Shown piece after piece: positions 26,189 through 29,045 of a DNA stretch of 50,822 nucleotides; within the stretch, counting starts at the first letter, position 1; every line of letters begins with the position of its first letter. The notes beneath the pieces are model-generated. The model searched no databases. It saw only the letters and a list, made by a program, of their open reading frames with translations, and was not told where the DNA came from. The stretch is from a virus (lineage: Duplodnaviria > Caudoviricetes). Location: IMG/VR virus record IMGVR_UViG_3300037423_000868, positions 1 through 50,822 of that record; one strand, given 5' to 3'. The translations under genes and the position numbers were made by a program.

Positions 26189-26228
26189 AGTAAACATAAG
26201 GCTACCGGAAACGCCCGTTATGCGTCGC
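26189..26228 (-). repeat. Xer/dif-like boundary site A
   Basis: Minus strand: GCGACGCATAA-18bp-TTATGTTTACT; TAA is the stop codon of 26218-26424. Confidence 0.6.
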
Positions 26229-26424
26229 GCACTTCCTTGGCCGTCATCAGCGCATCATGCGCCCGCGCCAATTTCTCCGCGAGATTCTGTGCGTATTGCC
26301 GTGCGCTATCTGTGACCGCCTTTTGCGCATGTTCCCGAAAAGCGCCTTCCTTGTCCTTAATCGCCACCATTGCCGCGATCAATGCCTCATCATCCATCAC
26401 CGCCACAAGCTGTTTAGTGCTCAT
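26218..26424 (-). CDS. Hypothetical protein (cassette-like ORF)
   Basis: SD GGAG, 68 aa, ends DA-stop inside site A. Confidence 0.7.
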   Translation of the reverse strand: MSTKQLVAVMDDEALIAAMVAIKDKEGAFREHAQKAVTDSARQYAQNLAEKLARAHDALMTAKEVRDA

Positions 26425-26438
26425 TGGTATCTCCGTTT

Positions 26439-26467
26439 TGTTTACAGAATCCCGAATTATGCGTCGT
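26439..26467 (-). repeat. Xer/dif-like boundary site B
   Basis: Minus strand: ACGACGCATAA-TTCGGGA-TTCTGTAAACA. Confidence 0.6.
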
Positions 26468-26720
26468 TAATGGTGCCATTCTTGTGAATGCCAGCTCGCA
26501 GCTTTTGCCGCGCAGCCTCATACCTCGCGTTCTCCTTACGTTCGGAACGCATTTCCAGCAAGGCAAACAGCGGGGCCAGAGGCAGCAGAAACAGGCACAA
26601 CAGCCGCACAAACAGCCCCCATATTGCGCCGACCAATGCCGCTAGGGATTCATCGATGTTTAGCCACATATTTAACTGATGGGTTGTCTGCTGCCGTAGG
26701 TAGTAGGAGTATGGGCGCAT
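26457..26720 (-). CDS. Small membrane protein (cassette-like ORF)
   Basis: SD AAGGA; one long hydrophobic segment; ends DA-stop inside site B. Confidence 0.68.
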   Translation of the reverse strand: MRPYSYYLRQQTTHQLNMWLNIDESLAALVGAIWGLFVRLLCLFLLPLAPLFALLEMRSERKENARYEAARQKLRAGIHKNGTINDA

Positions 26721-26756
26721 TTTCAGGTATCCTTTTTACGCTGGCTGATAATGGTT

Positions 26757-26796
26757 AATTGACATAAAGCTGCCGAAAACGCCGGTTATGCACCGT
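26757..26796 (-). repeat. Xer/dif-like boundary site C
   Basis: Minus strand: ACGGTGCATAA-18bp-TTATGTCAATT; spacer similar to that of site A. Confidence 0.65.
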
Positions 26797-27259
26797 TCGT
26801 CTGTTTCAGGATGGCATCGATTGCGGCATCCAGTCCTTCCGGCGTGTAGCAGGTATCCGGGTTATATGGTCCGCTGACCATCGGCATGGCACTGTGCCGG
26901 CGGTCCCGTAACGCGCGATACCGTTGGGCATCCTTTTCCAGCTCGGCAATGCGATGCGCAAGCCACTCGATCTGCTTCACGGCGTTCATGAACTCATGCG
27001 TTTCCGGGTGCGCGATAGGTGCGCCGGCCTTGTGCAGCGCCTTGATGATGTCGGTACGGTACTGCCCGGCCGTGCTCTCGAAATCCACCTGAATTGGGAT
27101 GCTTTCGATTTCCATCACCTGAACCGGCGCGGCATCCAGCAAGGCCCGCGCTGCCGCGTAGACATAGGGTTTCAGATCGGTCAACCCCTCTTTGATCGTG
27201 AAGCCGTTAGCGAGGAAGATTTCGCGGATTTGCTCATTCGTCATCGTTGTATTTTTCAT
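26786..27259 (-). CDS. Ead/Ea22-like mosaic hypothetical protein
   Basis: IREIFLANGFTIKEG..DLKPYVYAAARALL and LEKDAQRYRALR..LDAAIDA motifs common in lambdoid early genes; start may be 27259 or 27244. Confidence 0.7.
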   Translation of the reverse strand: MKNTTMTNEQIREIFLANGFTIKEGLTDLKPYVYAAARALLDAAPVQVMEIESIPIQVDFESTAGQYRTDIIKALHKAGAPIAHPETHEFMNAVKQIEWLAHRIAELEKDAQRYRALRDRRHSAMPMVSGPYNPDTCYTPEGLDAAIDAILKQTNGA

Positions 27260-27278
27260 ATTGGATATTATGCGACGC
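27251..27278 (-). repeat. Xer/dif-like boundary site D (canonical 11-6-11 geometry)
   Basis: Minus strand: GCGTCGCATAA-TATCCA-ATATGAAAAAT versus E. coli dif GGTGCGCATAA-TGTATA-TTATGTTAAAT. Confidence 0.65.
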
Positions 27279-27600
27279 GCCGATGGCACGGCCCGAGGCC
27301 GCACGATGGGCAAGTGCGCGGGTAGGGTTGACCGGCTTCCTTCATGCGCTGCTGGCAAGCTATCGGACCCACTTTGCTCGGCGGCATTGGTGGGGCTGGC
27401 GGAATGGATATGTTCACGTTTTGCCATTTTTTGGACATATCCGGCTGATATGGCGATGGCGTGAACATATTGATCGCCGCCTGCCAGCCTTCCCATCGCG
27501 CCCGCACGAACTGGTCGATGTACTCGCCGGCATTGTCCTTTTTGGCTTGCCGCGAGGACAGTTGAAAGTGCGCCTCGAAGGCGGCGCGGGTATCGGTCAT
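27268..27600 (-). CDS. Hypothetical protein with C-terminal YPRTC..CGLGPC motif
   Basis: SD GGGAG; RAAFEA..WEGWQAA motif; ends VA-stop inside site D. Confidence 0.72.
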   Translation of the reverse strand: MTDTRAAFEAHFQLSSRQAKKDNAGEYIDQFVRARWEGWQAAINMFTPSPYQPDMSKKWQNVNISIPPAPPMPPSKVGPIACQQRMKEAGQPYPRTCPSCGLGPCHRRVA

Positions 27601-27620
27601 TTCGGTTCTCCCTACGCTGT

Positions 27621-27848
27621 TCAAAGCATTGCCTTTATCTGCGGCAAAGCATCGCGCAGATTGGTCCATTGCGCATCGCATGATGAACGCCAGCCAATTG
27701 AAGTCAGCAGTTCCGCCAGCCGTTCATGTACGGGAGGGAGGCAATGTTCCTCTGCGAAATCACACAAAACTTCCAAGGCCTTGCTGTCGTAATCGTTGAG
27801 TGATACGCCAAGGTTTTGCATTGCGGCAATTGCAGTTTTGATGTCCAT
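27621..27848 (-). CDS. Hypothetical protein
   Basis: SD AAGGA, 75 aa. Confidence 0.65.
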   Translation of the reverse strand: MDIKTAIAAMQNLGVSLNDYDSKALEVLCDFAEEHCLPPVHERLAELLTSIGWRSSCDAQWTNLRDALPQIKAML

Positions 27849-27884
27849 GATTATTATTCCTTCGTTTTAATCGGAAAAAAGTGA

Positions 27885-27928
27885 CGTATGGATAAGGTGG
27901 CGTATTAAGACGCCCGGTTATTGGCTCG
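27885..27928 (-). repeat. Degenerate boundary site F
   Basis: Minus strand: CGAGCCAATAA-22bp (contains GGCGT..ACGCC stem)-TTATCCATACG. Confidence 0.45.
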
Positions 27929-28151
27929 GTATCAGCGCGATCTTTCGCGGCTGGTAACGCGCGTCAATGCAGACCATCTCCGTGCGCTCCTTCGGCCAGT
28001 AGAGCGAAGGCAGGCGCACATTGCCGGCCAGTTCCTGCGATACCCATCCTGATTTTCCAGTGGCCGGGTCTTCAAACCAGACGCCCCACATCTCGCAGAT
28101 CGGCTCGGCTACTTTTTCATCAGCCACTTTAGACTCCAAAATGTGATGCAA
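27918..28151 (-). CDS. Hypothetical protein (start uncertain)
   Basis: 77-aa ORF between sites G and F. Confidence 0.5.
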   Translation of the reverse strand: MHHILESKVADEKVAEPICEMWGVWFEDPATGKSGWVSQELAGNVRLPSLYWPKERTEMVCIDARYQPRKIALIPSQ

Positions 28152-28190
28152 GGATAATGGCGCTTATCAGACGGGGTATTTATGGTGTGC
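28147..28190 (-). repeat. Degenerate boundary site G
   Basis: Minus strand: GCACACCATAA-22bp-TTATCCTTGCA; spacer shares CGTCT..ATA..CGCCA with site F. Confidence 0.45.
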
Positions 28191-28989
28191 GGTGCAGCAT
28201 GGCGTCGATGTAATCCGTCATTGCCTTCCGCGCCTTGGAGCAGTGATTGAAGTAATCTTCTTTGCCCGCCATGTCTTCCACCACATCCATGTAGTTCGCC
28301 AGCAGAACAGTGAACTGACGGTCGCCAGCAATGCTTTTCGGCTCCTGCGCCCCGCTCGGCGCTGTCTTGTCGCGGCCATTCGCATGGCAATAGGCCGGCG
28401 TGCTGCACACGGCCTGATCGTGCGAGCAAGGAACCTTGTGACGCGCCCCGCTCGGCGCTGCTGGTGCGGCAATGGGCCGGGTCAATCCCTTCCGCGCAAG
28501 CACTCCGATTTCGCGTAGCAGCGAGGCGCGTTGCAACGCCAATTCCTTCCAATGGGCTACTTCATCCTGCTGCGGCGCTGCTGGTGCGGCGGCAACATGC
28601 GCGGTCGCTGTTGCGCCTTCCGGCCACTTGGCGAATCCGCACTCGCACATCACAACGCCTTTGCCGAGATCGTCAGCGGGCTTCCAATCATGCTGATGTG
28701 CAGTCTGCGCATCGCCAGGCGCGGCGCTCGGCGCCGCGATCTGTGCGCGCAGTTTGTCGTTTTCTTCCTCCAGGCTGGCGATGGTTTCGCGGGCGAACTG
28801 AAGAACCCGGTCATTCGCGGCGCTCGGCGCTGCGGCGAGGGCGGCAATCAGCTTGTTACCGCGCTCCACTTCCACATTGCGCCCGATGTAACGCGAGCAG
28901 CCAGAATCGCCGTCCATCTTCCCGTCGTTATAGCCATCGTCATATGCGGCCCGGATGGCGTCTTTGATCAGTCTTTCTGAATCAGTCAT
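28180..28989 (-). CDS. Mosaic early protein with repeated AAPS/AAPAAP linkers
   Basis: SD AAGGA; modules separated by AAPSAA, AAPAAPQ and APSGA linkers. Confidence 0.75.
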   Translation of the reverse strand: MTDSERLIKDAIRAAYDDGYNDGKMDGDSGCSRYIGRNVEVERGNKLIAALAAAPSAANDRVLQFARETIASLEEENDKLRAQIAAPSAAPGDAQTAHQHDWKPADDLGKGVVMCECGFAKWPEGATATAHVAAAPAAPQQDEVAHWKELALQRASLLREIGVLARKGLTRPIAAPAAPSGARHKVPCSHDQAVCSTPAYCHANGRDKTAPSGAQEPKSIAGDRQFTVLLANYMDVVEDMAGKEDYFNHCSKARKAMTDYIDAMLHRTP

Positions 28990-29008
28990 TGGGTTTTCCT
29001 TCAGTTAT

Positions 29009-29045
29009 TCCGAACATTGGACGAAACGCCTCAATTACGTACCGT
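29009..29045 (-). repeat. Degenerate boundary site H
   Basis: Minus strand: ACGGTACGTAA-TTGAGGCGTTTCGTC-CAATGTTCGGA; GGCGTTT also occurs in sites A and C. Confidence 0.4.

Follow-up and report, generated by a model that had tools for sequence, protein, structure and literature searches.

The short sequences that recur at gene ends within one operon of the virus record IMGVR_UViG_3300037423_000868 raise the question of whether they are recombination sites, RNA elements or traces of gene exchange. The window analysed here is this whole IMG/VR virus record, 50,822 bp with 63% GC and a 127-bp direct terminal repeat, and is a complete 50.8-kb genome of a tailed double-stranded DNA (dsDNA) phage. 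A preliminary description had noted sites with long spacers at its gene boundaries, and had proposed either that they fold as single-stranded DNA (ssDNA) substrates, in the manner of integron attC or CTXphi attP, or that they are scars of recombination. We give about an even chance to the view that they are short paralogous linkers, left by homology-driven gene shuffling and usable for more of it. The copies look like recombination footprints and not like hairpin recombination sites, and as such would be ordinary for a mosaic accessory operon; this one is hypervariable and lower in GC.

Two pairs of paralogous sequences lie at gene ends of an accessory operon

Every site starts at, or 1-2 nucleotides (nt) from, the stop codon of the upstream gene on the minus strand, and the strings and coordinates quoted for the sites in the preliminary description were all present on that strand. 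The operon and its sites are as follows.

26218..29394, minus strand: accessory operon, eight small genes, leftward (29394->26218)
26194-26223, minus strand: site A, GCATAA-CGGGCGTTTCCGGTAGCC-TTATGT, with an 18-nt centre
26169..26223, minus strand: site A extended to 55 nt, opening with the GCA TAA of gene 26218-26424 and lying upstream of the operon terminator
26457..26465, minus strand: site B, gene end GACGCATAA, a 9-mer identical to that of A, without a downstream element
26762-26791, minus strand: site C, GCATAA-CCGGCGTTTTCGGCAGCT-TTATGT, with an 18-nt centre
26737..26791, minus strand: site C extended, opening with the GCA TAA of gene 26786-27259, then the ribosome-binding site and ATG of gene 26457-26720
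27250..27278, minus strand: site D, gene end GTCGCATAA, separated by 8 nt from the ATG of the following gene
27890-27923, minus strand: site F (element 27876..27922), beginning at the stop of gene 27918-28127, with a 22-nt centre and then TTATCC
28152-28185, minus strand: site G (element 28138..28185), beginning at the stop of gene 28180-28989, with a 22-nt centre and then TTATCC
29017..29037, minus strand: site H, the TAA of gene 29035-29394 followed by TTGAGGCGTTTCGTCCAA, with GGCGTTT at 29024-29030

The relatedness claimed for the 18-nt spacers of A and C was confirmed: in the GCATAA...TTATGT register the two sites are identical at 26/30 positions, and at 41/55 when extended, with the identity unevenly spread (26/30 over the first 30 nt, 15/25 over the next 25). 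Across the window, only three direct 30-mer pairs reach 25/30 identity or more: A/C, a coding repeat of the tail fibre and the terminal repeat. Forty block-wise dinucleotide shuffles contained a mean of 0.225 such pairs per genome, with at least one pair in 8/40, and the A/C pair, taken alone and genome-wide, is only mildly unusual. Its origin by chance is very unlikely, because the two copies stand in equal register at two gene ends of one operon.

We then aligned ten intergenic stretches locally in all 45 pairs, with 300 shuffles as the null. A-C scored z 15.5 and F-G z 6.2 (gapped, over about 47 nt), each matched by 0/300 shuffles; all other pairs reached at most 3.5, the value for A-B, and site H had no significant partner (best F-H, z 2.4). 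A/C and F/G are each paralogous, and the site subfamilies of the preliminary description hold in this sense, as do, for F and G, the 22-nt centres with TTATCC after them and, for H, its GGCGTTT. With A and C, site H shares only GGCGTTT(C)G. The copies are direct, 568 nt apart for A-C and 262 nt apart for G-F, so that A/C flank two genes and G/F flank one. In both pairs the similarity continues past the right 'arm' of the proposed site, by 25 nt in A/C and by about 13 nt in F/G; the parse into arm, spacer and arm is therefore arbitrary, imposed on duplicated 3' flanks.

Three further candidates were rejected. The 14 differences between A and C split 6/4/4 over codon positions 1/2/3, with no third-position excess, and a coding remnant was discarded; an additional copy at 38519, a 12-nt match, lies inside a minus-strand open reading frame (ORF); and the likeness of the TTATCC of F and G to a DnaA box was judged coincidental.

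The sites fold no better than shuffled sequence

We folded sites A, C, F, G and H as sense RNA and as ssDNA of both strands, each against 200 dinucleotide shuffles. All 15/15 folds fell inside the shuffle expectation (z -1.04 to +1.37, with RNA folds at -0.67 to +0.28 across the five sites). The ssDNA folds had minimum free energies (MFE) between -0.8 and -5.6 kcal/mol, and only some optimal structures contained the arm pairing that had been proposed. The z values for each site were:

Site A: RNA +0.28; ssDNA +0.46, +0.94
Site C: RNA -0.22; ssDNA -0.09, +0.59
Site F: RNA -0.67; ssDNA -1.04, -0.06
Site G: RNA +0.25; ssDNA +0.57, +1.37; MFE only -2.3 (RNA) and -0.9 (DNA) kcal/mol
Site H: RNA +0.22; ssDNA +0.67, +0.23

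Two positive controls were detected by the same measure, a hairpin at 29686-29711 (z -3.12, 2/200 shuffles as good) and a terminator region at 26085-26195 (z -3.59). The spacers had been called foldable, and the pairings can indeed be drawn, yet they are no better than those of shuffles; folding both strands, the check that the preliminary description proposed, revealed no excess structure at any of the five sites.

Comparison of the paralogues, which with two sequences per pair has no statistical power, found all eight proposed pairs kept in A/C (16/16 cells paired, 7/8 invariant, one G-C to G-U) with no two-sided change among them, and in F/G four invariant outer A-T pairs, while the inner stem of F was unpaired at 3/5 positions in G. 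This inner stem (GGCGT/ACGCC) is the sole clean 5-bp stem among the sites. A six-frame search of the complete genome returned 0 matches at E<=1 for tyrosine recombinases (PF00589), with a positive control detected in 14/14 genomes, and no serine recombinase.

These results bear directly on the proposal that the long centres fold and that the sites recombine as single-stranded hairpins like attC or CTXphi attP. In its favour, the CATAA/TTATG and GGC/GCC pairings can be drawn and are kept in A and C, the elements are found, like attC sites, at the 3' end of every 'cassette', and the starting 7-mer matches 6/7 of the attC inverse-core consensus. But the fold statistics show no excess, A/C has no two-sided pair change and the stem of F is broken in G, the genome encodes no IntI or other tyrosine recombinase, and the elements are 30-34 nt long. 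They lie, moreover, in a tailed dsDNA phage with a terminase and not in a filamentous ssDNA phage, and as direct repeats they differ from the inverted pair of the CTX fork. The hairpin proposal is not supported and is largely refuted in silico; we consider it extremely unlikely.

The same data speak to plain RNA elements, that is, intrinsic terminators or RNase processing hairpins between cistrons. The sites are intergenic and on the sense strand, and F has its 5-bp GC stem with a T-run 18 nt past it. No T-run abuts any stem, however, as the layout of an intrinsic terminator would have it, the RNA folds show no excess, and a terminator-like consensus scan found 4 matches in the region against 5.4 expected from shuffles, none of them at A, C, F, G or H. 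The plain RNA terminator, named in the preliminary description as the competing explanation, thus has no terminator-like match at any site, and we regard RNA elements of this kind as very unlikely. A promoter-like consensus scan gave no match at A, C, F or H (2 in total against 2.5 expected from shuffles); one weak opposite-strand match overlaps G. An antisense promoter was considered and rejected, as the scan lists none for C or F. Rfam returned no match at E<=1 over 25000-32500.

Resemblance to Xer sites is weak

Xer sites have two 11-nt arms, bound by XerC and XerD, around a central region of 6-8 bp, and centres of 18-22 nt lie far outside any working Xer site known to us. We scored the window with the two 11-nt arms of Escherichia coli dif (printed in PMC3025954), which may not be those of the host, at spacers of 4-30. 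Six places reached at least 16/22 against 1.75 expected over all of these spacers. The best in the genome was site A (17/22, 8+9), with C at 16/22 (7+9) and D at 16/22 (8+8, 6-nt spacer), and D is the sole place with both dif-like arms around a 6-nt centre.

We weighed on this basis whether the sites are degenerate duplex Xer (dif-like) sites, or scars of Xer cassette insertion, that would use the host XerCD and whose 18-22-nt centres would be 'locked'. Besides the excess of matches, the presence of ParA and a Rep-like protein in a phage with no integrase or resolvase fits this idea, in that a host-Xer dimer-resolution site would make sense there, and dif-like sites of phages often have central regions longer than 6 bp, according to PMC3025954. 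Against it, scores of at least 17/22 occurred in 15/100 shuffles, A and C are paralogous and so count once, nothing in the window with a 6-nt spacer fitted the arm pattern at 3 or fewer mismatches, and F, G and H lack dif-like arms. Active direct sites 568 bp apart would also delete the intervening genes. The Xer resemblance appears weakly above chance, and we hold this explanation to be quite unlikely.

Relatives differ in gene content and one homology ends at site C

We compared 89 loci: 51 contain the flanking phosphoesterase, 4 a homologue of Rep, and 34 the N-terminal domain encoded by gene 26786-27259. The neighbouring small genes were conserved in 0/51, 1/4 and 0/34 of these, respectively. 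Among the loci compared, the exceptions were one helix-turn-helix (HTH) gene placed elsewhere, in L064, and in L090 a gene that weakly matches gene 27268-27600 (33% identity, E 4e-4). In the syntenic locus L079 the flanks are kept, from the N-domain gene to the convergent phosphoesterase, and the genes between them are different, mostly with overlapping TGA stops and without linker repeats. A blastn-short search with five elements found none of them in the 89 loci, merely 11-16-nt matches of a chance-like kind. Of four that were inspected (L065, L081 and two in L076), both in L076 and apparently that in L065 lie inside other coding sequence, and the ORF in L076 has no protein-level homology to the window.

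Wider searches gave the same picture. The A/C consensus pattern had 0 matches in a viral contig collection and 9 in a reference genome collection; these come from unrelated taxa (Bacteroides, Clostridia and others), none has the full GCATAAC...TTATGT, and they look like chance. Metagenome contig scans with gene 26786-27259 and with P0002, a 114-amino-acid (aa) protein from JGI metagenomes, revealed no relative, nor did viral contig scans with the neighbouring 269-aa and 119-aa proteins, P0002 or the iteron pair. Against phages, a blastn search with 7.5 kb returned nothing beyond an 81-nt stretch of BcepF1, which is entered under two accession numbers, and a blastn search of plasmids hit the ParA and HTH genes alone. 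With gene 26786-27259 as the tblastn query, the sole phage match was a 29-aa motif at the N-terminus, in Achromobacter phage JWAlpha.

Over 62 aa, P0002 itself shares 84% identity with the C-terminal portion of gene 26786-27259. The match ends at the residue before the TAA of site C and is followed by 41 unrelated residues, and phage homology therefore breaks at the left edge of C. P0002 ends in ...INDA; the next window gene ends in ...TINDA, with GAC GCA TAA as at site A.

Metagenomic contigs add to this. In sequencing run X3, identical contigs span C (26713-27257), F and H, with A and G not covered, and the arrangement therefore recurs in another sample. Contigs of relatives in run X4 join 26953|29936 and 26082|27129, with the intervening letters not known; these joints were taken at 80% likeness, where joints often come from other organisms, and they are consistent with different gene content in relatives.

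We also considered that the sites are a selected cis-element acting on mRNA or duplex DNA after the stop codon, such as a protein- or small-RNA-binding site or a decay or processing signal, that was duplicated along with the genes. The 30-nt core of A/C is conserved above the next 25 nt. GGCGTTT occurs 6 times in the genome (both strands), and 3/6 of these occurrences sit 2-5 nt after the TAA stops at A, C and H, while ATAAC(C)GG(G)CGT after the stop is common to A, C and F. But there is no Rfam match and no excess structure, the motif was not found in any related locus examined nor in the two collection scans, and similarity across families (A/C against F/G) never exceeded z 2. We regard such an element as unlikely.

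Linkers as proposed footprints of gene shuffling

We propose that gene blocks would have been inserted or exchanged between phages by homologous or short-homology recombination at shared linkers, each of which supplies or abuts the TAA stop of the upstream gene. Each exchange would leave a linker copy on either side of the incoming block, giving C-[two genes]-A and G-[one gene]-F, and the remaining copies could serve as homology patches at which genes are shuffled again, deleted or duplicated, probably with the recombination genes that the phage itself encodes (AAA_24, Gp157, NinB/Orf, Rap/NinG). The linkers would not work as folded single strands. The 'scars of recombination' of the preliminary description are compatible with this scheme and come close to our best explanation, although the route would be homologous or short-homology exchange and not Xer. 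That recombination at the linkers produced the present arrangement is what we infer from the paralogy and position of the copies, with further support from the TAA stops, lower GC and near-ORFan genes of the operon, the differing gene content of relatives, the breakpoint at C and the joints in X4.

Several points weigh against this proposal. The sole breakpoint seen, at C, was observed at the protein level only, and the joints in X4 lie away from the sites. No second genome with a linker in a different context was found in our searches, and none of the 13 joints listed skips from A to C (568 nt) or from G to F (262 nt), although contigs drop rare variants. A simple local duplication without any later role would look the same and is hard to distinguish from linker exchange, and the conservation of 26/30 against 15/25 could reflect selection on a cis-function.

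The operon, its neighbours and the phage

The eight operon genes are 29035-29394, 28180-28989, 27918-28127, 27621-27848, 27268-27600, 26786-27259, 26457-26720 and 26218-26424. The GC content of the region is 56% against 63% for the genome, and the proteins have at best weak PHROG or Pfam matches and are nearly ORFans. TAA is the stop codon in 7/8 operon genes, against 14/70 of the ORFs that a crude caller finds elsewhere. GCA-TAA ends the last four operon genes consecutively, which accounts for 4/9 of the GCATAA in the genome (both strands).

Two genes of the operon have features of their own. The N-terminal ~35 aa of gene 26786-27259 (…EQIREIFLANGFTIKEG.TDLKPYVYAAARALL) form a widespread mobile domain found on many different C-termini. 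We saw it in 96 database proteins and at 34 viral loci, and phage JWAlpha has a matching gene annotated 'Lar-like restriction alleviation protein'. Gene 28180-28989 (minus strand) encodes a 269-aa ORFan with five peptide copies of the AAPSA/APSGA type, encoded by repeated GCGCCGAGCG segments, and several contig joints at 28469-28821 (skips of 81-235 nt) fall between these repeats.

Around the operon we noted the following structures and the plasmid-type module.

26090..26121: perfect 13-bp inverted repeat that separates the operon from the convergent metallophosphoesterase gene, likely a real bidirectional terminator
29686..29711, minus strand: hairpin GCCCC-GUAA-GGGGC directly after the first gene of the leftward operon, which could be a boxB-like antitermination or RNA-stabilising element
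30099-30190: four GCTCACACTGAGC repeats (iterons), plasmid-type module
30216-30803: Rep candidate, HTH_36/DnaD-like, plasmid-type module
30800-31114: 104-aa ORF, plasmid-type module
31105-31746: ParA, plasmid-type module
31783-31888: second repeat array of ~10-15-nt units, upstream of parA

A second clear hairpin terminator lies at 39371-39397 (AAAGCCCGC-TTCG-GCGGGCTTT), after the 125-aa ORF 38989-39366. Next to the iterons, 30056-30067 and 30087-30098 fit what we take to be the DnaA-box consensus. The segment 30056-31888 is a plasmid-type maintenance module, and this phage, which has no integrase, is probably a phage-plasmid. No Rep homologue was found in a class-level sample of 401 genomes, a result that is uninformative on the host either way. 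The palindrome at 38590-38609, in the divergent early control region, has CTGT-N8-ACAG half-sites of the LexA/SOS-box form. It suggests that early transcription is under SOS control and that the host is a beta- or gammaproteobacterium.

The window encodes a terminase and head (capsid) and tail proteins, together with a lambdoid-type early region (repressor-like HTH protein, NinB/Orf, Rap/NinG, O-like initiator and DnaB); an AAA_24 protein, Gp157, a dUTPase and HNH proteins are also encoded. The phage is predicted to be temperate, siphovirus-like and phage-plasmid-like. The sequencing runs that contain it are soil and rhizosphere metagenomes, with no RNA run listed among them. Two HNH endonuclease genes, 32872-33546 and 36891-37349 (minus strand), lie in the leftward early operon, the second strongly supported and the first by a weak Pfam match only. 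A direct repeat lies inside the 580-aa tail-fibre-like gene, at 21474-21686 (plus strand), 25/30 identical and 183 nt apart.

Comparison with known systems

Integron attC sites are imperfect palindromes of ~57-141 nt, with a bottom strand that forms a stable hairpin carrying extrahelical bases, and they end in an inverse core, RYYYAAC, and a core, GTTRRRY, that are mutually complementary. The present sites resemble them in that there is one element per gene 3' end, in the same orientation and overlapping the stop codon. At 30-34 nt, on the other hand, they are shorter than any attC known to us, they form no stable bottom-strand hairpin and the genome has no IntI. Nor do they have an exact pair of core and inverse core: the near end matches the inverse-core consensus at 6/7 positions in A/C (GCATAAC) and 4/7 in F (CAATAAC), and the far ends, CTTATGT in A and TTTATGT in C, depart from the core consensus and do not exactly complement the near end. 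In CTXphi attP, two inverted dif-like half-sites pair with each other in the single-stranded DNA that a filamentous phage packages, whereas the copies here are direct, 568 and 262 nt apart, in a tailed dsDNA phage.

Among Xer sites (dif, cer/psi, Acinetobacter pdif, IMEX attP), the likeness lies in GCATAA...TTATGT, which is similar to the inner halves of the arms for XerC and XerD (8/11 and 9/11 at A against E. coli dif), and in a plasmid-like replicon without its own resolvase. The centres differ, at 18 nt in A/C and 22 nt in F/G against 6-8, F, G and H are without arms, and the copies are direct, whereas those of pdif modules alternate. A bolder idea would be a small cassette array in a recombinase-less phage-plasmid, with gene-end elements read by the host XerCD or by some unknown recombinase and with the centre looped out or belonging to a new long-spacer class. 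Were this true, it would be a phage counterpart of pdif modules or integron cassettes, but we think it highly improbable. A real class of long-spacer recombination sites in a phage would matter, and nothing that we found requires one. The main value of the analysis is in this respect negative, in that hairpin pairings of the attC or CTX kind form equally in random sequence of the same composition.

Known linker systems offer the closer comparison. Lambdoid phages have short conserved boundary or linker sequences between modules, which the HK620 and lambdoid literature proposes as points of homologous exchange. The sites here are similar in their position at gene boundaries, their place in an early operon and the proposed route to mosaicism. 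Lambdoid linkers are shared between different phages, whereas the present copies were seen within one genome only.

The promoter-early stem-loops (PeSLs) of T4-type phages are short repeated intergenic sequences that flank small ORFans in hyperplastic regions, and recombination between their copies leads to insertions, deletions and replacements, according to Arbiol et al. 2010 (PMC2839356) and Comeau et al. 2014 (PMC4122927). The repeats of the accessory operon are likewise intergenic and flank ORFans (two genes for A/C, one for G/F), in a region that differs in all relatives examined. They differ in other respects: PeSLs are composites of sigma70-like promoters and functional stem-loop terminators, whereas A, C, F and H have neither a promoter-like nor a terminator-like match and the sites show no excess folding; and only 2+2 (+1) copies are present. 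PeSLs belong to T4-like myoviruses, and the present host is predicted to be a temperate siphovirus-like phage-plasmid, at whose copies exchange is inferred. One breakpoint, at the protein level, coincides exactly with the left edge of C; the joints of X4, of uncertain origin, lie elsewhere. If the sites are indeed linkers, they add a further example, from a phage-plasmid-like siphovirus of soil, of gene-end sequences that allow accessory genes to be swapped, which would not be surprising and would be useful for reading the boundaries of mosaic genomes.

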